Origin: a virus
Length of the DNA stretch: 64,000 nt
Virus record (IMG/VR): IMGVR_UViG_3300042502_001732
Location: 64,001 to 128,000 of that record
Reading direction: 5' to 3' (one strand)
The notes under the pieces are model-generated. The model worked only from the letters and a program-made list of their open reading frames with translations, was not told the DNA's origin and did no database searches. Numbering within the stretch: the first letter of the stretch is position 1; every line of letters begins with the position of its first letter. Shown here one piece after another: positions 27,952-57,074 of the stretch. The translations under genes and the position numbers were made by a program.

Positions 27952-28148
27952 GTTGTTAGTAGTATAGTTTAGTTTCTTATTAGTCTACGAGAAACCTGCG
28001 CTTCCATTGTGATTCTTGCACTTGTTTATCAAGCCAAGATTGTTGTTGAAAGATGCGGATTCCATACACAGGTTTTTGTTTTGTAAAAAACAATGATATG
28101 ATTTGGTCGAGTAGCTTCATGTTGTTATGATAGTTTAGTTTTTTATTA

Positions 28149-28499
28149 TTACCTTGCATTTAGAGCATACACAAGTCGGTTGTTAATAATGACACCATCG
28201 GCTTTGTCAATATACTTTGTTCCATCAAAGAATCTTTCTTTTAGATATGGATTGTATCCTACGATTTGGTATTGATGTTGAGTGGGATCAAGTTCATTGG
28301 TAGGTTCTCCAATAATAAATGCGTGGACATTTTTCCTCTTTTGTTGCAACACTCTTTGTCTTCCTGCTTCACTCACCTTGAATGAAACATTCTTGAGATG
28401 TATTGCATCAACATGACGCATGACTTTCCACACGCCATTGACTTTCTCTTGAACACTCAAGCGTTTTTTATGTAGATTGTAGTAGACGCGAACATTCAT
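28149..28499 (-). CDS. conserved phage hypothetical protein
   Basis: VYYNLHK...FKVSEAGRQRVL..KRKNVHAF. Confidence 0.75.
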   Translation of the reverse strand: MNVRVYYNLHKKRLSVQEKVNGVWKVMRHVDAIHLKNVSFKVSEAGRQRVLQQKRKNVHAFIIGEPTNELDPTQHQYQIVGYNPYLKERFFDGTKYIDKADGVIINNRLVYALNAR

Positions 28500-28503
28500 A
28501 AGT

Positions 28504-28686
28504 TTATTGAGCTAGTTTTTGAAGGGCTTCAAGACAATCAAGGCGGGTCTTTTTTCCCGTGATTGCTTTGGCAGTTTTGAATACGAGATTGCGACTATGC
28601 CGCATTCCCATGATTTCAAGTTTCAATCCGCTGATAAGGACACGCAAGCGGTATCCATCAATTTGTTCTTTAGTAGTTAGTATCAT
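28504..28686 (-). CDS. hypothetical protein
   Basis: Motif-1 promoter; LKLEIMGM. Confidence 0.6.
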   Translation of the reverse strand: MILTTKEQIDGYRLRVLISGLKLEIMGMRHSRNLVFKTAKAITGKKTRLDCLEALQKLAQ

Positions 28687-28766
28687 AGCGACCTCAGTAT
28701 ATTCTAGTTTTTTATTATTAAAATAAGGGCAGTTTTATGTCATACCCAGGACATTGCTACTACTAC

Positions 28767-29270
28767 TTATGAAAGTTCCTCATAATCCTCTGTGCCAAGG
28801 ATATTGTTAGATTTTACGGTGAAACATTCGGGGCGATTTTCTTCTGGATTCAGTAGCTTTTTGCGCTCGCTTTCAGTAAGAAACTCAGCGAATGTTCCTT
28901 TATCGACCACTTGCCCATCGACATAATAAGTCGAAGATGGAAAGTGATTGTTGCCAGTTGAAGGATAAAGCCTGATATATTCAGCATCTTTATGCTCAAT
29001 AACATAGGGAAATTGTTTCCAATTACCCCATGGCAGACTTTGCACTTCCCCACGCTCGCCATTTTCAATGGCATCTTTGACGCTGGAAAGGTTAGCAAAG
29101 TTCACGCCAGCACGAACAACAGCACTTGTCACTTTTTCAAGAATGACATTCTTATGAGCGGCGGCGGGTTTGGGATTGCTTTTCCAATAGGCTTTTACAA
29201 AAGAACCTTTCGTGTTGAGGATCTTATTGATAACTTCAGTTGCGGTTAGTGATGCAGTATGTGTATTCAT
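28767..29270 (-). CDS. hypothetical early protein
   Basis: 167 aa; motif-1 promoter. Confidence 0.7.
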   Translation of the reverse strand: MNTHTASLTATEVINKILNTKGSFVKAYWKSNPKPAAAHKNVILEKVTSAVVRAGVNFANLSSVKDAIENGERGEVQSLPWGNWKQFPYVIEHKDAEYIRLYPSTGNNHFPSSTYYVDGQVVDKGTFAEFLTESERKKLLNPEENRPECFTVKSNNILGTEDYEELS

Positions 29271-29375
29271 AGCGACCTTAATATAATCTAGTTTCTTATT
29301 AGTGACAGTGTATTGGGGTTTGGTAACGAAACAGATTTCATTACCAAAACCAATATATTCTAGTTTTTTATTAGT

Positions 29376-30893
29376 TTATTCAGCTTCTTTATTGCCACGA
29401 GTCGGGCAATCGGTGATATGAACAAGTTTGTTCTTTGCTCGCGTGATGGCAACATATGAGAGATTCTTTTCTTGTTCTTTCATCCAATCCAAAACCGCAT
29501 ACTTACTTGGTTGAAATTGACTCATACCAAGGATATAACAGTTGTCAAATTCCAATCCTTTTGACTTGTGAATGCTTGACAGTGTGACTACATTCGGCTT
29601 TTTATAGTCGTCATTATCACTGAACATATCACTGATAAGTTTTTGAAGAGATGCAACATCATGCTTGCCGAGGGTTTGGCATCGCTCAATGAGAATCATC
29701 ATTGTATCAAATTTGTCTTCAAGCAGTGCAAGTTTTGCTTTACTAGCCTTTTCGCTTTCACGATCAAAATGCTTTTGAAGTCGAAGTGTAAACGTTGCCA
29801 AGTCTTTTACTTTCCACTTGCGAGTGAGTGTAATAAGGTTTTGACCAATGTCTTTTCCTTCGATTCTACAACCAATGCCTTCACGAATAAGCGCAAACGC
29901 AAGAGCAACAAGCGGGGAATTATTGCGACATATGATACCATCATTTTTATTAAGGTTTAATGACGGTGTAGATTTTACAAATTCATCATACTTAATTGAA
30001 GATATTTCCCCGTCGTTGTTATTTTCAAATGCTTCAATGTCTGCTACATATTCTTTAGCAGCGGTGATAATATTCTTTCCGCAGCGATAGCAAACACTCA
30101 GCGGAAGTTCAACAGCGTCAAACATAGTTTTGATGAGTTCCATGCTATTGTTTTCAGCACCAGTAAACCCATAGATAGCTTGATTTGGATCACCAATAGC
30201 AATCAATCTACCACCTGGCTTAAGCATTTTCTTGAGCAAAAGCTTTCTACAAACATTGGTATCTTGTGCTTCATCAACAATAATCCAATCATATTGTATC
30301 ATATCAACATCAAAAAGCAATGGGAAATAAAGCATATCACTGAAATCAATGCTTTTGACATCACGGTTATTAAGATCCAGTACCTTTTGGCATACATCAA
30401 TAATCGTTTCCAAGCTCACATCAGCATCAATATCAATATCATTATGCTGAATAATATTGACCCAAGCATTGATATCATCAACAGTGTTGCAACCAGAAAC
30501 ACCAAAACCGTATTCTTTTGCAAAGCGAACCATATCCATGATTGCTTTACGACACTTCATAAGTTCCCCTTCTTGAGTGAAATACTCAACAAAGTTATAA
30601 ACCTTGGAGTTATTAACACTCATTTTGCCTTTTGCTTTGGCAAGACTTTTCAATGATTCACTATGAAAAGTAGCAGCACTTGCATTGGGATAACCCATAG
30701 TAACAAGACGATTTTGCAATTCAGTTGCAATTTTCTTGTTGAAAGCAAGCATCAAAACATCACCGCTCATACGATCAACAGCATTGATAGCAGTAGTAGT
30801 TTTACCACTTCCCGCTTTAGCATTGACAATCGCATTGCCAGTTCCTTCAGATACCCATTTATATATATTTTCTTGATAAGTAGATGCAAACAT
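29376..30893 (-). CDS. UvrD/Rep-like SF1 helicase
   Basis: AKAGSGKTT, VDEAQD, GDPNQAIYGF, CYRC, IHKSKGLEF, YVAITRAK. Confidence 0.92.
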   Translation of the reverse strand: MFASTYQENIYKWVSEGTGNAIVNAKAGSGKTTTAINAVDRMSGDVLMLAFNKKIATELQNRLVTMGYPNASAATFHSESLKSLAKAKGKMSVNNSKVYNFVEYFTQEGELMKCRKAIMDMVRFAKEYGFGVSGCNTVDDINAWVNIIQHNDIDIDADVSLETIIDVCQKVLDLNNRDVKSIDFSDMLYFPLLFDVDMIQYDWIIVDEAQDTNVCRKLLLKKMLKPGGRLIAIGDPNQAIYGFTGAENNSMELIKTMFDAVELPLSVCYRCGKNIITAAKEYVADIEAFENNNDGEISSIKYDEFVKSTPSLNLNKNDGIICRNNSPLVALAFALIREGIGCRIEGKDIGQNLITLTRKWKVKDLATFTLRLQKHFDRESEKASKAKLALLEDKFDTMMILIERCQTLGKHDVASLQKLISDMFSDNDDYKKPNVVTLSSIHKSKGLEFDNCYILGMSQFQPSKYAVLDWMKEQEKNLSYVAITRAKNKLVHITDCPTRGNKEAE

Positions 30894-30961
30894 GTGACAG
30901 CAGTATATTCTAGTTTTTTAGTAGTCTTTTTTCTACAATTCTAGTTTTTTAGTAGTGGATA

Positions 30962-31660
30962 TTACTCTGGATTCACAACAAATCCCGTATCATCTTTCTT
31001 GGCTTTGCCTTTATCAACAAGACCAACAACACAATTACTAGGATCAAGAAAGCGAAGATCATTGGTATCACCATCAACAACAACCTTATTCTTGTAAGTA
31101 GCAGGAAGTTTTTTGCGAAAAACAACAGCAACATTGCCACCCATACTCATAATAAGATCAGTATGAGATTCATTGCTTTCACTACGAGAGAAAGTAAGAT
31201 GATAATTCTTTGGAAAATTACCATTAACAAACTCAATCATACGCTTTACATTCTTGGTATAATCATAAAATACAACATCGGGAAAGTGTTGCATCATATT
31301 CTTGCCTTGAAACAAGACATTTTCCCAAGGAATATCACTTGTAAGATTGAATCTAAAGCAAGGAATCATATCATTCTTCTTTGCTTTTTTAACAGCACTT
31401 TGAATTTCTTTATACAATTTAAGCAAGAAATCTTGTTTATCATTAAAGAAATACTTGGTTTTATTGATACGAGATTGTTGAACATTTGAATAAACACCCA
31501 TGCCAGCGGTATTAAGACAAGCAGCCGCACAACCTATTGATGCAAATTGACAAGTGTTATAACCAGACAATTTAGCAGGAGCTAAATGAATACCATTTGA
31601 ATAATAACCAAATGATTCACCTTTTTTGATTTTTGTATTTGCAGTAGTGAGTAGTTTCAT
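30962..31660 (-). CDS. GP88-like phage protein (radical-SAM-related fold)
   Basis: LAPA...CQFASIGCAAACL, RFNLTSDI, FYDYTK, DGDTNDLRFLD. Confidence 0.8.
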   Translation of the reverse strand: MKLLTTANTKIKKGESFGYYSNGIHLAPAKLSGYNTCQFASIGCAAACLNTAGMGVYSNVQQSRINKTKYFFNDKQDFLLKLYKEIQSAVKKAKKNDMIPCFRFNLTSDIPWENVLFQGKNMMQHFPDVVFYDYTKNVKRMIEFVNGNFPKNYHLTFSRSESNESHTDLIMSMGGNVAVVFRKKLPATYKNKVVVDGDTNDLRFLDPSNCVVGLVDKGKAKKDDTGFVVNPE

Positions 31661-32455
31661 AGCGACAACAATATAATCTAGTTTTTTATTAGTTTCGATT
31701 CAATCGTGATGATGAATATCAATAAAACAATATGATGATTTATTGATATTGATTTCAATCATGCGAAATCATTATGATCTAGTTTCTTATTAGTTTTTAT
31801 ATCTTTTTCTATATTGATATATAAACTTATATCTTCAACTATGATAATCTAGTTTTTTATTAGTCTTTTTATCCTTTCTACTATCTGTTTATCTTTGTTT
31901 TATTTTTTTAATTATTATTGTCTTTATCATTGATAAAATTTGCTATATCATTATTAGTTACGCTACGCGACATGTTTTATTCCGTAACTCATTGATAATC
32001 AATGATTTTGTTTTTTTGGATACAGATCGTTGGATATATATTATATTGTGTTTATCTGGCGTATTTTGTTGATATATATCGTGTGTGTATCTGTGTGTGC
32101 TTGTGTGTATCTATGTGTATTTTGATACATTTTATGCGTATTTTGATATTGTTTTAGTATATTTTGGTGTATTTATACGCTATTTTTGTTTGTTTTTGAT
32201 CCTCATTTCCTTTATGAGTTGATCGTATTCCCCGCTTCTGTATTGTTTTAAGATGATATCCACTGCAATGCAACAGGCTTTAAAATTATTTTTTTGGGTA
32301 TTGTTTGATTGTTTCATGTGTGTGTTGTTGTTATTGTGTGTATGCTTATTCACTAGCCATTATGCGTTTTATCAAATTTACATGTTTATATCAGATAAAC
32401 AAAGTTGTGATATTTACAAAGTTATAATGGTGACATTATTGTATTGATACCAATG

Positions 32456-32641
32456 TCAATGAACTGATATGTTATTGTCTATTTTTATTTTAGAATTTGG
32501 AAAAGTCCAACACTCTTTTGTATCGTTTATAAAACAAACCCAGTGTAAGTCATGTTCTTGGGAATAATCAATTACCAGATGTGCATATCCTTTTCCTTTG
32601 GGTGTTGTTACTGGTATTGTTGGGTTTAATTGTAATATCAT
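32456..32641 (-). CDS. conserved small phage protein
   Basis: MILQLNPTIPVTTPKG...IDYSQEHDL.W. Confidence 0.65.
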   Translation of the reverse strand: MILQLNPTIPVTTPKGKGYAHLVIDYSQEHDLHWVCFINDTKECWTFPNSKIKIDNNISVH

Positions 32642-32656
32642 AAGTTACATTTGTTT

Positions 32657-32920
32657 TTATAATTTATATTTGAATGTCTTACCATCTATGATATTGTCTT
32701 GTACCAATATATCAAGTGCCAAGGATTTATCTAGGATTTCGTAGGGATTATCTTTTGATTCCAACAACATATTGTTTCCTATCTTGTCGTTGATTACAGG
32801 ATGGATTGTTATGTTTTGTATGTTTATTGTTTTGTCTTGCAGTAATGTGAACGTTATGTGTGCTAGATGAACATCTGCGTCTTCTTCGCTGGTTATCAAT
32901 GATCGATGAATGTACTGCAT
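32657..32920 (-). CDS. hypothetical protein
   Basis: 87 aa ORF. Confidence 0.5.
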   Translation of the reverse strand: MQYIHRSLITSEEDADVHLAHITFTLLQDKTINIQNITIHPVINDKIGNNMLLESKDNPYEILDKSLALDILVQDNIIDGKTFKYKL

Positions 32921-32948
32921 ATTTGATGTTTTGTTGTATCAAAGTTTG

Positions 32949-33197
32949 TTACTTTTTAATCTCTAGGATTTCCACCTTCACGATCTTGCGTGAGATTTCG
33001 TTGTGGAATACATAATCAGATCCCACATAATAATCATCTACAATCTGTTGGATTGATTTATCTACCAGCATTACTAAAAGAACATTAAAGCCAGTAGTGA
33101 AGCGATCACCGTCTTCAATTGTGATATTCAGTGTAACTGTGATATATTCGCGTCTACTACAATCTTCATAAAAAACGCTTGAGTGTTCGTTGGTCAT
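32949..33197 (-). CDS. hypothetical protein, near-identical to 49826-50035
   Basis: Shared LNITIE.GDRFTTGFNVLLVML...VEILEIKK. Confidence 0.65.
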   Translation of the reverse strand: MTNEHSSVFYEDCSRREYITVTLNITIEDGDRFTTGFNVLLVMLVDKSIQQIVDDYYVGSDYVFHNEISRKIVKVEILEIKK

Positions 33198-33220
33198 ATT
33201 GTTATTGTATCAGAGTTTTA

Positions 33221-33418
33221 TTACCAGTGGGTGTATTCTTTGATGATACCCTCTTCATTCAGATAGCGAGCACACACATAAGTCTGAACGCAACTATCAT
33301 CACATGTCTCGAAAACATGAAACTTATCTTGCAACTCATACACAGCTTCGAGATACAATCTGCATGCTTCTTTTGCAGAGTCTAAGTTAGGATGAACATC
33401 ATTAGGTGGCATAGTCAT
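33221..33418 (-). CDS. hypothetical protein
   Basis: Fills a motif-2 cassette. Confidence 0.55.
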   Translation of the reverse strand: MTMPPNDVHPNLDSAKEACRLYLEAVYELQDKFHVFETCDDSCVQTYVCARYLNEEGIIKEYTHW

Positions 33419-33440
33419 ACTCTTATTGTATTAGTGTTCC

Positions 33441-33641
33441 TTAGTCCAATTCGTAGGTATCAACCTCGATGCCGATCTTACTTAGCTCGTGTACAGCGTG
33501 ATTGCGATACCATTCTTGATTCCAAAGCATCTCAAGACCTCCTTTTTTGAAGTCGTCTGGAAGAAGAAGGGATGTCATCTCACTAGCTTTGATAAAGTCT
33601 TCTTCGCTGTTGAAGGTGATGAAGTATTCCATTTCGGTCAT
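33441..33641 (-). CDS. hypothetical protein
   Basis: Fills a motif-2 cassette. Confidence 0.6.
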   Translation of the reverse strand: MTEMEYFITFNSEEDFIKASEMTSLLLPDDFKKGGLEMLWNQEWYRNHAVHELSKIGIEVDTYELD

Positions 33642-33653
33642 ATTATTATTGTA

Positions 33654-33788
33654 TCAGTGTTCCTTGTTTATTTCCTTCTTACCATCCTTACGCACACGCT
33701 TATTCTGTATGCGTTTATAGTATTTGCGTAGATGCTTCCACCATTGAACGGTCTTGACACCGCCTTTACTCTTTGATGAACTACTCAT
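33654..33788 (-). CDS. 44-aa highly basic peptide (copy 1)
   Basis: MSSSSKSKGGVKTVQWWKHLRKYYKRIQNKRVRKDGKKEINKEH; conserved copies at 50047 and 51333. Confidence 0.65.
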   Translation of the reverse strand: MSSSSKSKGGVKTVQWWKHLRKYYKRIQNKRVRKDGKKEINKEH

Positions 33789-33804
33789 TTGTTTATTGAT
33801 AAAA

Positions 33805-34413
33805 TTAACTGACGGTTTGTTGTTCTAGTTGTTTGAGTTTGTTTTTCAAGCTGTTTAATTTGTTTTCAATCGAGCTGTTTTTATTTTCAACGAGTCGTAT
33901 CATTGATCTACAGCATTTACAAAACTGATAGTATGATGGTTTTGGATTGTTGCCTTGATATTTCAAGGAGTTTTGAATACGATTATGACTGGTGGTTTTG
34001 ACGCGAATAATCCTTGAACAATCGCATGTGTATTCGTATGTGTTTTGTCGTTTGGTTTTGGTAACACTGGTGTCATAGCTGTGGCAACGAATCGGTTCAG
34101 CATTGAAAACCTTTATCATAACATATTTCCATTCTTTGCCATGACTCTTTACAAAACTACCAAACACCATTCTCTGAATATAATGAGCCATTTCATGAAC
34201 AACAATCTCATGAAAGGTTTGTTTGTTATGCTCTGCCAAGTCAAGTTGGAACATCAATTCTCTGATTGATTGATTAAAAGACACAAGACAAGTTCCTGCT
34301 GTTGTGCCGTTTCTTTTAAAGATGATGTTGGTGGGTCTTGGAAAAACCCTGTTAAAGAATTTTTCAGCAATGAGGAAACATTCTTCAACCTTTTGTAGTA
34401 TGGTGTCTTGCAT
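33805..34413 (-). CDS. SprT-like zinc metalloprotease
   Basis: TTAG, VHEMAH, HGKEWK, RCHSY, YTCDC. Confidence 0.9.
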   Translation of the reverse strand: MQDTILQKVEECFLIAEKFFNRVFPRPTNIIFKRNGTTAGTCLVSFNQSIRELMFQLDLAEHNKQTFHEIVVHEMAHYIQRMVFGSFVKSHGKEWKYVMIKVFNAEPIRCHSYDTSVTKTKRQNTYEYTCDCSRIIRVKTTSHNRIQNSLKYQGNNPKPSYYQFCKCCRSMIRLVENKNSSIENKLNSLKNKLKQLEQQTVS

Positions 34414-34517
34414 GACAACAGTATATTTTAGTTTTTTATTAGTTTCTTGAAATCCATCAAACGATGAAATGAATCTACAATCCTTTTATAAAAAAAACAA
34501 TTTGACTAAATAATACT

Positions 34518-34823
34518 ATGACTACAAAAGATCAATATAATTTAGCTAACTTGTATAAGGAATCATACGAAAATGATGACATTTCATTTGATGCTGATTT
34601 ATCCGATGTTAATTTAACTTACAATGATGAAGAATCTGCACTTATTGAAAAATATGGCAAATTGGGAGAAAAGCTTGTAAATTACTTTCATGCACTTGAA
34701 AATGCACTTAAAAATCCCATGACTAATTTTGCAACTATTCAACACTTAACGGATAAAATCAATTCCATGCAACATGGTATGCGTATGGTAGATAGTAGAA
34801 ACAAAGTTGATAGACATTCATAA
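34518..34823 (+). CDS. late protein, probable internal head protein
   Basis: CTAAATA upstream; MTTKDQYNLANLYKESYE leader. Confidence 0.6.
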   Translation: MTTKDQYNLANLYKESYENDDISFDADLSDVNLTYNDEESALIEKYGKLGEKLVNYFHALENALKNPMTNFATIQHLTDKINSMQHGMRMVDSRNKVDRHS

Positions 34824-34833
34824 ATTTTTAAAG

Positions 34834-35049
34834 TTATCCAATTAAGATTGCTTTACAATCGCTTTCTTCCTCCTCTTCAACAATCTCATGGTTGCCATAA
34901 TACCATTCACTATTTACTCCTAGCTTTATAGACTCTTCTCTACATACAGAACACGCATTTACTCCTCCTTCATATCCATTAACAACAACCATTGTTTCTG
35001 GATCGTATTCTTGAAGTTTTTCAATTAATTGTTTGACTTTCATCTTCAA
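34834..35049 (-). CDS. hypothetical protein (MKVKQLIEKL family)
   Basis: Common phage N-terminal motif. Confidence 0.6.
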   Translation of the reverse strand: MKMKVKQLIEKLQEYDPETMVVVNGYEGGVNACSVCREESIKLGVNSEWYYGNHEIVEEEEESDCKAILIG

Positions 35050-35252
35050 TTAAAAAAGAAAGGAAACGATTGTTTGACTAGGGAAAGAGTCAATTCTTCA
35101 CAGATCAACCATTTGATAAGAACGATTGGGTAAAAGATGGCATCAATGATTCCCCAGAATAGACTATTGTTGTTTAGGTTATATCCCAGTACACCAACGA
35201 TGTAAGCCAAGACATAACTATAATTAGAACGGTAATGATAAGTTTTGTTCAT
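35046..35252 (-). CDS. small membrane protein
   Basis: Hydrophobic; ATGA-coupled. Confidence 0.55.
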   Translation of the reverse strand: MNKTYHYRSNYSYVLAYIVGVLGYNLNNNSLFWGIIDAIFYPIVLIKWLICEELTLSLVKQSFPFFFN

Positions 35253-35350
35253 ATTAAAAAAGATTAATAATTGCTTTAATGATGGTTACGAAAACCATTG
35301 TTAAGCACACTCCCATAAAGAGTGTGCAAAGAATTAGGATTGGTGTTGAA

Positions 35351-35614
35351 TCAAAGTTTTTCATTTAAAAATGTTTCTATTTCTTCGAAAAATTCACCAT
35401 CCCATTCACGATTTTTATTGATGGTTTCAAATTCATCTGTTAAGTCTTCAGCAAGTTCATAAAGACCACCGTGTCCTTTTTCTTTAATAGTCTTTTCCAA
35501 CAATTCACTGTGGTCTATTTCATGCGTATGCATCGCATGTGCAACAGTGATTGCCGCAACTACTTCATAATGAGTCTCTTGCCAAGATGCAAATCCGTTT
35601 GGGAAATTTTTCAT
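35351..35614 (-). CDS. conserved phage hypothetical protein
   Basis: FPNGFASWQETHYEV...GGLYELA..LTDEFE. Confidence 0.7.
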   Translation of the reverse strand: MKNFPNGFASWQETHYEVVAAITVAHAMHTHEIDHSELLEKTIKEKGHGGLYELAEDLTDEFETINKNREWDGEFFEEIETFLNEKL

Positions 35615-35710
35615 AAATGTAATTTAGATGAGATGATTGTATTTTAGTTTTTTATTAGAATTTTTTTATAAAAGATTATGAATCTATTCATAATATGGAT
35701 AAATAATAAT

Positions 35711-36070
35711 ATGAAATGTTTAATTTGTGAGAAATCATTAGAGGGAAGACAGAAAAAATTTTGTAGTAGTAAATGTAAAAGTATGTTAGCTAATAATAAA
35801 TTGCAAAATTATCAAGCACAGCAAACAAGGGGCAAGATAAGAAAAAAAAAGTTAATCGAAATGAAAGGAGGCTGTTGTGAAAAATGCGGTTATAATAAAA
35901 GTTTAGCAGCATTGTCTTTTCATCATTTGAATCCAAATCTTAAAAAATTTCATTTAGATATTAGAAATCTTTCCAATAGGAAGTGGGAAATGATTATTGA
36001 AGAATTTAATGAATGTGAATTGTTGTGTTTTAATTGTCATATGGAATTACATCATGGTTGCGAATGGTAG
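35711..36070 (+). CDS. free-standing HNH homing endonuclease
   Basis: CxxC...FCSSKC, GGCCEKCGY, FHHLNP, LLCFNCHMELH; ATAAATA late box upstream. Confidence 0.85.
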   Translation: MKCLICEKSLEGRQKKFCSSKCKSMLANNKLQNYQAQQTRGKIRKKKLIEMKGGCCEKCGYNKSLAALSFHHLNPNLKKFHLDIRNLSNRKWEMIIEEFNECELLCFNCHMELHHGCEW

Positions 36071-36347
36071 GGGTGGAGGGATTCGAACCCCCACTCAATC
36101 GATTATGCTTACCACTATAGTTTTCACTACCCTTTCGGTTTGTGGTCTGGACTATCCCTTAATCTTCAGCATTACCTGTTAAGACTGAACTATTATAGTC
36201 TCTGCACGTCTCTCTTTCGAGATTTCGCTCAAGATTGGCATCAGCATTACCTGTTAAGCGTTCCTTGAATTTAAGTTCTGCTAACTTATTATTTCTAACA
36301 AGAAGACCCGTTAAAGTCGACTGCTTTGACCATTAAGCTACACCCCT
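36065..36347 (-). tRNA. tRNA with CAU anticodon (probably Ile2/lysidine type), split by a group I intron; exons 36347-36315 and 36107-36065
   Basis: Spliced: AGGGGTG...GTCGA-CTCATAA-TCGAT...GGGGGTTCGAATCCCTC-CACCCCT-ACCA; the A1-U72 pair argues against an initiator tRNA. Confidence 0.85.
36108..36314 (-). mobile_element. group I intron (207 nt, no ORF)
   Basis: Inserted after U33 and ends in G; P AAATTCAAGGAA, Q AATCTTGAGC, R GCAGAGACTA, S AAGGGATAGTCC. Confidence 0.9.
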
Positions 36348-36400
36348 TTATATAAAATTGAACAGCCTTTTATTGACTTGCTTAGGTCAGATTGCCGATA

Positions 36401-36574
36401 TTATCGGAGTCTGTATTGATTTGTTTCGATGTTGACATCGACAAGATTGCGCTTTTCAAGAGCAAGAATAATGCGCTTGGCGTTCTTATCAAAAGAATGC
36501 CATCCATCAATCTTACTGATGAATGCAAACGCTTCTCTTTGATGTTTGCCCATCTTTTTAATGTTTGTTTCCAT
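36401..36574 (-). CDS. 57-aa basic protein (METNIKKMGKHQRE...)
   Basis: Hand-translated; TTGACA...TATCTT promoter near 36627-36655. Confidence 0.5.
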   Translation of the reverse strand: METNIKKMGKHQREAFAFISKIDGWHSFDKNAKRIILALEKRNLVDVNIETNQYRLR

Positions 36575-36691
36575 ATTATTGCGTTTTTTGCTGTTATCGG
36601 TGAATCATCATCACCGCCGACTAATTTAAGATACCAACAATTTTCACTTTGTCAACATCTTGTCCCATAAGATAATCTAGTTTTTTATTAA

Positions 36692-36880
36692 TTATTCTGA
36701 AAACATGCTGTTGTCGTTTTCGTATTCATCGGAAGAAAAAGTCTTTCTTAAAACTATTTCTGTAATATATTTGTCACACAGATGATTGATATAATCATCA
36801 AATTCTTTATCATTCAGAAAACCAACAGCCACATGCCCATTGGCAAGCATAACTTTTTCTATTGGTTTTTTATTATACAT
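36692..36880 (-). CDS. hypothetical protein
   Basis: Leftward small-gene run. Confidence 0.5.
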   Translation of the reverse strand: MYNKKPIEKVMLANGHVAVGFLNDKEFDDYINHLCDKYITEIVLRKTFSSDEYENDNSMFSE

Positions 36881-36895
36881 TATATAAACTTTTTA

Positions 36896-37123
36896 TCAAG
36901 CGAATTCTACTTCGATTTCGTGTCCTGTTTCTGATTTGGTTTGTCCATCTAGAACAAGATAGATTGCGGCGTGGTATTTATCTTCATCAATATCATAGAA
37001 AAAGTTTAAATCAACAAATTCATTTATTACATGCCACTCATCTTCTTCATGAGCGCGTTTAATTGTATACTGACCTTCTTGTGTGTCAAGAATAAGTTCT
37101 TGTTCTTTGACAATAAGTTTCAT
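36896..37123 (-). CDS. hypothetical acidic protein
   Basis: Leftward small-gene run. Confidence 0.55.
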   Translation of the reverse strand: MKLIVKEQELILDTQEGQYTIKRAHEEDEWHVINEFVDLNFFYDIDEDKYHAAIYLVLDGQTKSETGHEIEVEFA

Positions 37124-37144
37124 TTGTTTCTTTATTAGATGTGT

Positions 37145-37345
37145 TTAAGAACTTTTCCTACCATTCGAATAGCAACGATGAATTTTACCATCATCACCCG
37201 TTTTAAATAAAATCCATTCTCCTTTATTATGTTTTTGTTTAAGATAGTCTTTAACCCATTTAGGAAAATCTGTAAAACTATCAGCAGTCTTTATTTTATG
37301 TTCAAATGGAGTAGCGATAATACAAACATACCTAGCGGGTTTCAT
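37145..37345 (-). CDS. hypothetical protein
   Basis: ATGA-coupled. Confidence 0.5.
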   Translation of the reverse strand: MKPARYVCIIATPFEHKIKTADSFTDFPKWVKDYLKQKHNKGEWILFKTGDDGKIHRCYSNGRKSS

Positions 37346-37605
37346 TTGTTTCTGTATTTACGGAGAAGTTGCTCGTCTGTCATGCGGGTAGTCAAGAATG
37401 TCTGGTGGAAAGTGACAGGGATGTTGCCATACTCACCATCATCATGGATAAGAGTGTCGCCATTGTAGATATCAAAATCTGCACCCCAATAACTTTCATT
37501 AATAACTACTGGTGGGAATCTCTCACCATCAATATTTGAGGTGATATTATGCTCAATGACTACTCGTCTTTTAGGATTAAAAAGATTAAAAATATTAAAA
37601 AACAT
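37342..37605 (-). CDS. hypothetical protein
   Basis: Probable start MFFNIFN. Confidence 0.5.
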   Translation of the reverse strand: MFFNIFNLFNPKRRVVIEHNITSNIDGERFPPVVINESYWGADFDIYNGDTLIHDDGEYGNIPVTFHQTFLTTRMTDEQLLRKYRNK

Positions 37606-37803
37606 ATTATTAGTATTGGTTGTTGTGTTTATCCATGATAGCGTTGAACCTCTCTTGAAATATATTTGAGGAATCATCAAATAGACTAATATCGGGTTTG
37701 AGTGAATTGATTGTTACTTGAGTGAGTTCTGAAAGATCCCGAATAGTTGCGAGCAATTGCTCAATTGTTTGTTCCACAGTATCCATATTATTTATTATTA
37801 GAT

Positions 37804-37878
37804 TGGTAGGCCGTGATGGAATCGAACCATCGACTAAAAATTAGAAATTTCTTGTTATATCCCCTTAACTAACGGCCC
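37804..37878 (-). tRNA. tRNA-Arg(UCU)
   Basis: GGGCCGT/ACGGCCT acceptor, AGAAA-TTTCTAA-TTTTT anticodon arm, GATGG-TTCGATT-CCATC, encoded CCA. Confidence 0.9.
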
Positions 37879-37885
37879 AAAATTA

Positions 37886-38104
37886 TTAGAAGTTTTTAAA
37901 GTCGTGATCTGGGAAAATCTCTTTGATTTGTTCATGAAGGAGGCGTTGAAACTGTAGGAACTTATCTGTCAACTCCCAAAGATTATCCTTGCCAAGTTTT
38001 TCATAAGCAATATTAACTTCATTGATTAGTTCATGACCACAGGAATCAAGAACAGATTCCATGTCTTCAAAGTTTGGTGCAAGTATTTTCATATATTCTT
38101 TCAC
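37886..38104 (-). CDS. hypothetical protein
   Basis: Motif-1 promoter. Confidence 0.55.
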   Translation of the reverse strand: MKEYMKILAPNFEDMESVLDSCGHELINEVNIAYEKLGKDNLWELTDKFLQFQRLLHEQIKEIFPDHDFKNF

Positions 38105-38134
38105 TTGTGTTAGTTTATTTTAGTTTCTTATTAA

Positions 38135-38614
38135 TCACCAAGATGAAGTATAAAACAATCGTTCTTTATCCCAGTTGGTGTTGTCAATAAGATTAGAAAT
38201 TTCATCAATTGCTTTTTCAATACGTTCCCAATAGTATTCATCAACATCAGTTGATCCAAAAAAGAAACCAGAAACTGGCATCATTTCAGAAGGATCATTT
38301 TCTGATTTTGTATTCAGTAATGTTTCCAGCAAATCAATTAAAACATCTTTGTCTAGTTCATAATGTGCGCAGTTGTCGATTCCTACTTGAACATGTGTGA
38401 CAAACCAATTATGAAGCGCATTAAATTTGCGCCAATAGGCCACCTGATGAAAGATAGTATAATAGTCTTTAAAAGTATCTGGATATGGTTGATCTAATGG
38501 CAAAAACTCTACGATTTTTGGATCGTTTGGATTGGGTTCCCTGTCGAGTTCGTGCAATTCGTCGATGGTGTGTTTGGTCTTTTTGACCTTAAAGATATAC
38601 ATGTCTAGTCCCAT
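38135..38614 (-). CDS. conserved phage protein (MGLDMY...YWRK.N family)
   Basis: MGLDMY, AYWRKFNALHNWF, GFFFGS, YTSSW. Confidence 0.8.
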   Translation of the reverse strand: MGLDMYIFKVKKTKHTIDELHELDREPNPNDPKIVEFLPLDQPYPDTFKDYYTIFHQVAYWRKFNALHNWFVTHVQVGIDNCAHYELDKDVLIDLLETLLNTKSENDPSEMMPVSGFFFGSTDVDEYYWERIEKAIDEISNLIDNTNWDKERLFYTSSW

Positions 38615-56747: not shown

Positions 56748-57074
56748 TGGTGGATGTGTGGAGGATCGAACTCCAGTCCATGACTTCTCGGCAATATACT
56801 TCTACAATTTATTGATTGATGTTAGGACAATCACAACCTAGATTGTTGTCGAGCAATCCCGCATCAATATTCGAATCGATGAGTCTATTATATTTTCGAT
56901 ATACAACTATCCGACCCTACTCTGTACCAACGCATGTTATCGGAGTTGATGCGTTGGTGCGGTTATGCCGCGAGAGCTAGTGTATCTTTTTCGTTTTTCT
57001 CTTGCACTTAGAGTCGTGCAGACTGTGCATTGCATATATTGCTTCAAATGTCATGTCGAAACCATGTCACACCC
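56748..57074 (-). ncRNA. ssrA: tmRNA
   Basis: 5' GGGTGTGACATGGTTTCGAC; 3' GGACTGGAGTTCGATCCTCCACACATCCACCA; G3-U70 pair; tag frame ends DTLALAA-TAA. Confidence 0.92.

Follow-up and report, generated by a model that had tools for sequence, protein, structure and literature searches.

The window analyzed here is a 64,000-nt stretch (positions 64,001 to 128,000) of the IMG/VR record IMGVR_UViG_3300042502_001732, a 144-kb, ~69%-complete genome of a distantly T4-like phage from lake water. On its minus strand lies a tRNA(CAU) gene in three pieces, in which two exons are separated by a group I intron. Converging on this gene from the plus strand is a gene for a free-standing HNH endonuclease. The features of the locus are:

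36347-36065, minus strand: tRNA(CAU) gene, three pieces (sequence; ARAGORN with introns allowed)
36315..36347, minus strand: 5' exon, 33 nt, tRNA positions 1-33 (sequence; ARAGORN with introns allowed)
36108..36314, minus strand: ORF-less group I intron, 207 nt, IC3-like architecture (Rfam RF00028; covariation)
36065..36107, minus strand: 3' exon, 43 nt (sequence; ARAGORN; alignment with other tRNA(CAU) genes)
35711..36070, plus strand: free-standing HNH endonuclease gene, 119 aa from ATG 35711 (phrog_2255, Pfam HNH)
36065..36070, no strand assigned: 6-nt overlap of the last codon and stop of the HNH gene (TGG TAG) with the tRNA 3' end (sequence)

Anatomy and identity of the split tRNA gene

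The 5' exon comprises the acceptor and D arm sequences and the 5' half of the anticodon stem, followed by C32 and, at its very end, U33. The 3' exon opens with CAUAA, which supplies the anticodon CAU with A37 and A38, runs through the 3' half of the anticodon stem, the T arm and the 3' strand of the acceptor, and closes with ACCA, comprising A73 and an encoded CCA. Rejoining the exons yields the loop C-U-C-A-U-A-A, with the intron inserted after loop position 2 (U33).

Run plainly on the window, ARAGORN did not detect the split tRNA(CAU). With introns allowed, it returned identical outer ends and an identical 207-nt insert, the latter shifted by 3 nt and with 'tta' as the anticodon. The corresponding reading as 'tRNA-Stop (tta)', a suppressor tRNA(UUA) interrupted at 37/38, was rejected: it provides neither a U before the intron nor a terminal G, and it is contradicted by the 93% identical L163-type gene, in which ARAGORN calls cat with an intron of length 207 at 34. 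U33 | C34 is the sole placement that gives a U before the 5' splice site, a terminal intron G and a 7-nt anticodon loop. Because a C stands after U33 in the 93% identical relatives, where (as in L163) a shift of the boundary is impossible, the ambiguity of the splice boundary is removed. The junctions at 36315 and 36107 reported in the initial annotation are right, since U33 | C34 alone fits both the group I rules and the ARAGORN calls for the relatives.

Judged by its A1-U72 pair and the lack of a GGG/CCC anticodon stem, the split tRNA(CAU) is not an initiator; the genome's initiator tRNA, with C1 opposite A72, lies elsewhere. The split tRNA carries G3-C70. G3 and C70 are negative discriminators for Met and fMet and thereby indicators of tRNA-Ile(CAT) (Silva 2006, PMC1635315), and by this rule the split tRNA is probably of the elongator type and Ile2-like, i.e. 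of the AUA-reading isoleucine type, as had been suggested from its appearance. A search for TilS across the 144 kb of the ~69%-complete record was negative, which says nothing on the isotype. The same genome contains a second elongator-type tRNA(CAU) of similar type, which is intronless and is identical to the window's spliced sequence over 13 nt around the insertion site. Given this second copy, selection on the intron-bearing one may be weak.

Fold and class of the group I intron

The elements of the intron were positioned as follows:

36309-36305, minus strand: IGS (intron helix coordinates)
36302-36296/36291-36285, minus strand: P2, with a GAAA loop
36278-36274/36191-36187, minus strand: P3
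36268-36263/36234-36229, minus strand: P4
36259-36258/36239-36238, minus strand: P5
36228-36226/36208-36206, minus strand: P6
36200-36196/36154-36150, minus strand: P7
36186-36182/36165-36161, minus strand: P8
36146-36142/36115-36111, minus strand: P9, two GAAA-capped hairpins
36108, minus strand: terminal G of the intron (intron end ...GGUAAG)

P1 is formed by GACU at the end of the exon pairing with GGUC of the intron (36309-36305, seven bases in), with U33 opposite a G. The Rfam family Intron_gpI (RF00028) matches 36329-36126 over the whole model (positions 1-253) with 47.6 bits and an E-value of 5e-11 on a 601-nt stretch, or 2.8e-12 for the genome. This score lies 2.4 bits below the curated cut-off of 50, and a default Rfam scan of the window reported no intron. 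The homologous introns at loci L017 and L078 score 63.6 and 76.6 bits against the same model, respectively.

We aligned 15 related introns to a P2-P9 structure that includes the P3/P7 pseudoknot and comprises 48 pairs in 11 helices. In this set 97.4% of the cells are paired, compensatory changes occur at 31 of the 48 pairs, and the covariation score of 0.602 compares with 0.197 for shuffles and 0.05-0.13 when the partners are slid by 1-3 columns. The nested helices were recovered independently by RNAalifold. When the window's intron is compared with the L163-type intron alone, pair-keeping changes are found in each of P2, P4, P5, P6, and P9a. There is no P5abc, P2 and the two P9 hairpins are GAAA-capped, and the J6/7-P7 region fits the consensus. 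Together the full-length Rfam match, the covariation, P1 and the terminal G identify the insert as a group I intron with a conserved fold. It sits between U33 and CAU as initially annotated, and at 207 nt it is far too short for an endonuclease ORF. A single-sequence MFE fold (z -2.2) did not reproduce the group I fold and was left out of the evidence.

Among the assembled contigs of a single RNA run no splice joint was seen; one RNA contig spans 36318-36573 and ends 3 nt before the 5' splice site. It had also been suggested that the intron hides the anticodon loop until splicing. This holds as a trivial consequence of the split gene, but as a function it is not borne out.

The architecture is consistent with the bacterial tRNA (IC3) intron type, to which the four classical tRNA intron classes belong (Williams 2020, bioRxiv 10.1101/2020.01.27.920355). 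In the nomenclature of that preprint, the sequence assigns the window's intron to class 'Ile2.2Ug' or 'Met.2Ug', both of which are so far listed only in its bacterial seed alignment. The class 'fMet.2Ug' is the classical cyanobacterial tRNA-fMet intron, some copies of which encode I-Ssp6803I (Williams 2020), and U33/34 is indeed the insertion site of these cyanobacterial introns, as the initial annotation had it. The window's intron resembles the bacterial position-2 tRNA introns in its place at U33 | C34 of a CAU loop, its U at -1, its terminal G, its small size and its IC3 architecture. It differs from the cyanobacterial tRNA-fMet intron in residing in a phage, in an elongator Ile2-like tRNA, and in having no ORF and a free-standing HNH partner; the enzyme encoded by the fMet intron is a PD-(D/E)XK nuclease. 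The Azoarcus intron, at about 205 nt, is similar in size, interrupts the same kind of tRNA, carries GAAA tetraloops on P2 and P9 and likewise has no P5abc extension. However, it is bacterial, has no associated endonuclease and is inserted at 36/37, after the anticodon, whereas the window's intron is inserted at 33/34.

These observations bear on whether the locus could be a decaying spare copy, that is, a non-functional duplicate in a hypervariable region that is redundant to the tRNA(CAU) of the main cluster and does not splice. Such a reading is in keeping with the second elongator-type tRNA(CAU) of the genome, and the 28-38 kb region of the window, which holds the cassette, has no counterpart in close relatives. 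Because this region is missing from them, no empty site can be defined; no tRNA remnants or scars were found around the window's cassette. We nevertheless consider decay very improbable, as the split tRNA forms a complete cloverleaf with the conserved nucleotides, all core helices of the intron are intact, its differences from the closest relative are compensatory, and the identical locus occurs in lake metagenome DNA contigs from 2016 to 2024.

The HNH gene and its family

An alternative in-frame ATG upstream of the HNH gene, at 35678, would extend the protein from 119 to 130 aa. The ORF matches phrog_2255 'HNH endonuclease' with an E-value of 2.9e-20, and scores 20.5 bits against Pfam HNH, for which the cut-off is 21.4. 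The columns that are invariant among nine relatives are C3, C6, C18, C22, C56, C59, H71, H72, C102, C106, N108, C109, H110, and H114, and the zinc cysteines and the His-His...Asn...His motif are all kept in the window's protein. With its catalytic and zinc residues intact, the protein looks like an intact free-standing endonuclease, in line with what had been noted from the sequence at the outset. It is encoded by a single copy in the genome. Like its nearest relatives it is a short form without the first zinc-finger module of the family, and its activity or specificity may be reduced. The convergent overlap with the ACCA end of the tRNA that had been described was also found: the 6 nt TGG TAG are the complement of the tRNA's CUACCA (C71-U72-A73-C-C-A). 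The enzyme may have its target elsewhere than in the tRNA.

A profile search of IMG/VR with the HNH protein confirmed 455 relatives, and the best 80 loci of the 455 were examined. In 77 of these 80 loci there are tRNAs at a distance of up to 2.5 kb, most often with one tRNA gene on either side of the HNH gene. The closest relatives among the best 80 of 455 are those at L009 (66% identity), L010, L011 and L019 (58%), and L012 (53%). These genes, together with the more distant L039 (44%), are convergent to an intronless tRNA(CAU). The convergent gap beside tRNA(CAU) ranges from -18 to +4 nt (L009, L010, L012, L016, and L039), and the abutting antisense layout is also seen at tRNA-Arg(UCU) introns (L088, L116, and L147). 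At L007, L013, L015, L020 and L041 the tRNA(CAU) lies just upstream of the HNH gene, and more distant members of the family adjoin tRNA-Asn(GUU). The neighboring tRNA(CAU) genes mostly have G3 or A3 paired with C70 or T70.

In a quick tree of the HNH proteins, the window's protein groups with those of L009 and L010 (support 92), and the enclosing clade (SH-aLRT 95) is rich in tRNA(CAU) neighbors; the intron-linked HNHs are not monophyletic. The HNH family lives between phage tRNA genes, with a sub-clade tied to tRNA(CAU). Its occurrence is patchy, as the gene accompanies some tRNA(CAU) genes and is missing beside the corresponding tRNA type in close relatives, which fits a mobile gene. A search for an HNH-less allele of the tRNA(CAU) at L009 recovered the same contig alone.

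Related introns and the genomic context

A 23-nt motif from P7-P9 was used to find related introns in viral contigs. The motif occurs in 74 contigs, at least 67 of which have a split tRNA around it. The interrupted genes are mostly tRNA-Leu(UAA), in which the intron lies at U34 | A35, and also include Asn(GUU), Arg(UCU), Ile(UAU), and CAU. A second pattern search located six contigs (L163, L164, L168, L169, L171, and L172) with a 207-nt intron that is 93% identical to that of the window. These six share the same anticodon-stem exon flanks and have different acceptor and T stems; between the window and L163/L164/L168 the 93% identity covers the intron and about 12-28 nt of flanking exon. Such a mosaic resembles the outcome of an intron transfer accompanied by short co-conversion tracts. 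In the L163-type contigs the intron-bearing tRNA(CAU) sits in the main tRNA cluster with no HNH gene within 1.5 kb, and at least two of the six contigs (G001 and G002, holding L163 and L169) are close relatives of the phage, with 96-99% amino acid identity in DNA ligase. These comparisons indicate that the intron travels, or is maintained, independently of this HNH as well.

The main tRNA cluster of the genome, which lies outside the window, contains GIY-YIG, NUMOD3 and second HNH genes. There, a GIY-YIG/NUMOD3 endonuclease gene and a new tRNA(CAU) without an intron occupy the interior of what was ancestrally an intron-bearing tRNA(CAU), of which 27 nt at the start and 10 nt at the end remain on either side. 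The tRNA-Leu(UAA) intron of the relatives is cleanly absent here, with flanks that are 96-97% identical. Considering that an intron-bearing tRNA(CAU) was overwritten by a GIY-YIG cassette and that the Leu(UAA) intron is cleanly absent, the tRNA(CAU) genes of this phage group, as read from these alignments, are a hot spot of endonuclease-driven replacement. A megablast of 15 kb against cultured-phage records gave no match, and distant blastn returned only fragments, namely the cores of Vibrio phage and crAss-like DnaB introns and a megaphage HNH homolog.

The intron and the HNH gene are paired but loosely linked

An intron-bearing tRNA(CAU) together with this HNH occurs in three lineages, represented by the window, L016/L170, and L017. 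At L016 and L170 the HNH gene (53% and 49% identity) converges on a tRNA(CAU) that is interrupted at the window's insertion site by an intron of 201 nt. The intron at that site in L017 is 751 nt long, and its P1 loop contains the whole HNH gene in antisense orientation, with the end of the ORF entering the 5' exon. At L078, a tRNA-Asn intron lies directly upstream of the HNH gene.

We determined how often the two elements adjoin in a census of distinct tRNAs at 84 loci picked without regard to HNH, scoring HNH genes within 150 nt. Of the distinct tRNAs, 11 of the 58 with an intron and 7 of the 200 plain ones have the HNH as a neighbor (odds ratio 6.5, p 3e-4, ignoring relatedness). The co-occurrence in related phages that the initial annotation proposed as a check is thus seen as an enrichment, but 47 of the 58 intron tRNAs (81%) have no such HNH nearby. 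Most of the HNH-adjacent tRNA(CAU) genes are intronless. Part of the co-occurrence could stem from both elements piling up in tRNA clusters. The pairing of intron and HNH is real but loosely linked, and the two are separate mobile elements; the linkage is loose because most intron tRNAs lack the HNH and the intron also appears to move or persist without it.

Taken to its limit, the shared preference for tRNA clusters would make the two elements chance neighbors, with the HNH directed at a target elsewhere, such as tRNA 3' ends recognized in the relaxed manner of SegB. T4 SegB cuts tRNA genes at their 3' ends and drives the inheritance of the tRNA region (PMC2330249). As in the window, the SegB gene is an endonuclease gene wedged between phage tRNA genes; SegB differs in being a GIY-YIG rather than an HNH enzyme and in belonging to a system with no intron. 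The relaxed specificity of SegB for tRNA 3' ends, the abundance of endonuclease genes in the tRNA clusters of this phage group (GIY-YIG, NUMOD3 and a second HNH in this genome) and the 81% of distinct intron tRNAs without this HNH are all compatible with mere coincidence. Coincidence does not readily account for the 6.5-fold enrichment that intron tRNAs show over plain tRNAs of the same loci, the recurrence of the abutting antisense layout across tRNA types, or the HNH gene inside the intron at L017, and we regard it as rather improbable.

A tighter relationship would be strict collaborative homing, in which the HNH recognizes and cuts the anticodon loop where a tRNA(CAU) gene has no intron, the intron protects its own genome by splitting this site, and repair copies both elements together. 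Collaborative or trans homing pairs include the cyanophage psbA intron and F-CphI, the DNA polymerase intron of T3/T7-like phages and its neighboring HNH, and T4 mobE and the I-TevIII intron (PMC3984707, PMC6083498, PMC2790892). The defining layout, an ORF-less intron beside a free-standing endonuclease gene (PMC3984707), is present in the window, and, as in the known pairs, an ORF-less (or defunct-ORF) group I intron adjoins such a gene in a phage. The relatives of the window also form the predicted series, the HNH gene being located next to a gene without an intron, next to an intron and within one. The pair is found in three lineages, the HNH is enriched beside intron tRNAs, and at L017 the HNH gene lies at the 5' end of the intron, that is, at the insertion site, which fits both cutting nearby and the predicted end state. 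In the known pairs, however, the host genes are protein-coding and the target of the enzyme was shown to be the intron insertion site, whereas here the host is a tRNA, the HNH gene is antisense to it, and the closest HNHs do without an intron.

It is on the protective role of the intron that strict homing meets its main difficulty. The HNH relatives at L009 (66%), L010 (58%) and L012 (53%) adjoin intronless tRNA(CAU) genes, so immunity at those loci comes from something else. Because these closest relatives do so, the intron is not generally needed to protect an HNH-bearing genome. In close relatives the 93% identical intron has no HNH as a neighbor, and in the window's own genome there is still a tRNA(CAU) without an intron that equals the spliced sequence over the 13 nt about the insertion site. 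The initial proposal that the intron confers immunity against the HNH is not supported in the form given; L017 is suggestive of it, but strict homing appears unlikely to us.

Considering the evidence for pairing together with that for independence, we propose that two separate selfish elements occupy one phage tRNA gene, and that the HNH spreads with the intron as its passenger; on balance we favor this reading, with some reservation. The intron would have to leave the tRNA by GTP-dependent self-splicing before the tRNA can work and, if the tRNA is Ile2, modification of C34 by the host TilS would follow. In a mixed infection, the HNH would cut or nick the tRNA(CAU) region of a related phage without the HNH gene, and repair from the HNH-bearing genome would copy the HNH gene along with the adjacent tRNA. 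The intron would then spread as a passenger, which is trans homing in a loose sense. For tRNA inheritance driven by the HNH in this way, T4 SegB provides the precedent.

Discussion

A 2014 review of bacterial group I introns placed all phage introns known at that time in protein-coding genes, although phage tRNA genes are numerous (PMC3984707). The 2019 Lak-phage paper stated that phage tRNA introns had not been reported before and left its own introns unclassified (PMC6784885). In the literature that we searched, we found no description of group I introns in phage tRNA genes, nor of an intron and HNH pairing in such genes. The window provides a structurally sound, tRNA-type group I intron in a phage tRNA; dozens of viral contigs contain close relatives of it, which interrupt five types of tRNA. 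Plain ARAGORN and a default Rfam scan both fail to report it; genes of this kind escape standard annotation, and counts of phage tRNAs are therefore too low. Phages may also transfer such introns between bacterial and viral tRNA genes.

The pairing with an HNH family of tRNA clusters offers a natural series in which to follow the merging of free-standing endonucleases with ORF-less introns. A bolder reading is that the series shows a mobile intron coming into being, with each of its stages still represented among related lake phages; the HNH would cut the anticodon loop, and tRNA introns would act as shields in an endonuclease arms race. We put this forward tentatively, as a possibility that is less likely than not. 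The stages would run from an HNH gene beside an intronless tRNA(CAU), through one beside an ORF-less intron, as in the window, to one lying antisense in the P1 loop. The idea of an arms race was prompted by the GIY-YIG cassette that displaced the interior of an intron-bearing tRNA(CAU) in the same genome.

A cassette scar and an intron polymorphism in the main tRNA cluster

The main tRNA cluster of this phage lies beyond the window, in a stretch of the same genome designated L183, and contains the following features:

L183:2908-3610 (genome 130908-131610, outside the window), GIY-YIG/NUMOD3 endonuclease gene and complete intronless tRNA(CAU)
L183:3983-4612, 210-aa ORF between tRNA genes with a weak NUMOD3 match, likely endonuclease
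L183:7862-8563, 234-aa HNH protein of another type, between tRNA genes, likely endonuclease
L183:9482-9577 (genome 137482-137577), 96-nt tRNA of class II shape (anticodon UAU, long variable arm)

At the first of these loci an older tRNA(CAU) gene survives only as its initial 27 nt and terminal 10 nt, which flank the endonuclease gene and the intronless tRNA. The counterpart of the older gene in close relatives (contig L168) is whole and carries an intron. The locus is the scar of a cassette replacement within a tRNA gene, driven by an endonuclease. The 210- and 234-aa ORFs are likely to represent two further endonuclease genes amid the tRNA genes of this cluster. Many of the related viral contigs carry "tat" tRNAs, 88-95 nt long, that resemble the 96-nt UAU one.

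In the relative, tRNA-Leu(UAA) carries a group I intron of 203 nt (L168:5394-5597). It is cleanly missing at genome position 131855 (L183:3855), and the flanks of the site are 96-97% identical. The two contigs display a clean presence/absence polymorphism of this intron.

Intron variants at other viral loci

Two further loci with HNH homologues, L017 and L078, each carry an intron-bearing tRNA:

L017:893-1719, tRNA(CAU) with a 751-nt group I intron and a full HNH gene in the P1 loop, antisense strand
L078:2113-2414, split tRNA

The final ~7 codons of the L017 HNH ORF run antisense to the tRNA(CAU) 5' exon. ARAGORN called the L078 tRNA as Thr(tgt). Its P1 pairing (GCUGU with GCAGC), the discriminator G73 and the acceptor stem (UCC...) indicate a tRNA-Asn(GUU), with the intron after U35.

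The window's intron and its surroundings

The P5 and P8 hairpins of the window's intron share one identical 18-nt sequence (36258-36241 and 36183-36166), similar to the 11-nt GAAA-tetraloop receptor. These receptor-like sequences could provide twin docking sites for loops L9 and L2.

From 28000 to 38135 the window contains small minus-strand ORFs and has no equivalent in relatives that share 95-99% identity in the adjoining genes; synteny restarts at 38135, and again from 40558. Features in this region and elsewhere in the window include:

33805-34413, minus strand, SprT-like metalloprotease-domain protein (Pfam E 4.8e-13)
37804-37878, tRNA-Arg(UCU), within the region
56748-57074, minus strand, phage-encoded tmRNA (RF00023, 84 bits, full length)

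Among public runs, metagenomes of lakes and freshwater dated 2016-2024 contained an identical copy of the locus at 35300-36700. The P7-P9 module of the tRNA(CAU) intron also draws numerous further contigs whose exon ends are of the tRNA-Leu type; the family to which this intron belongs is thus abundant in those lakes.
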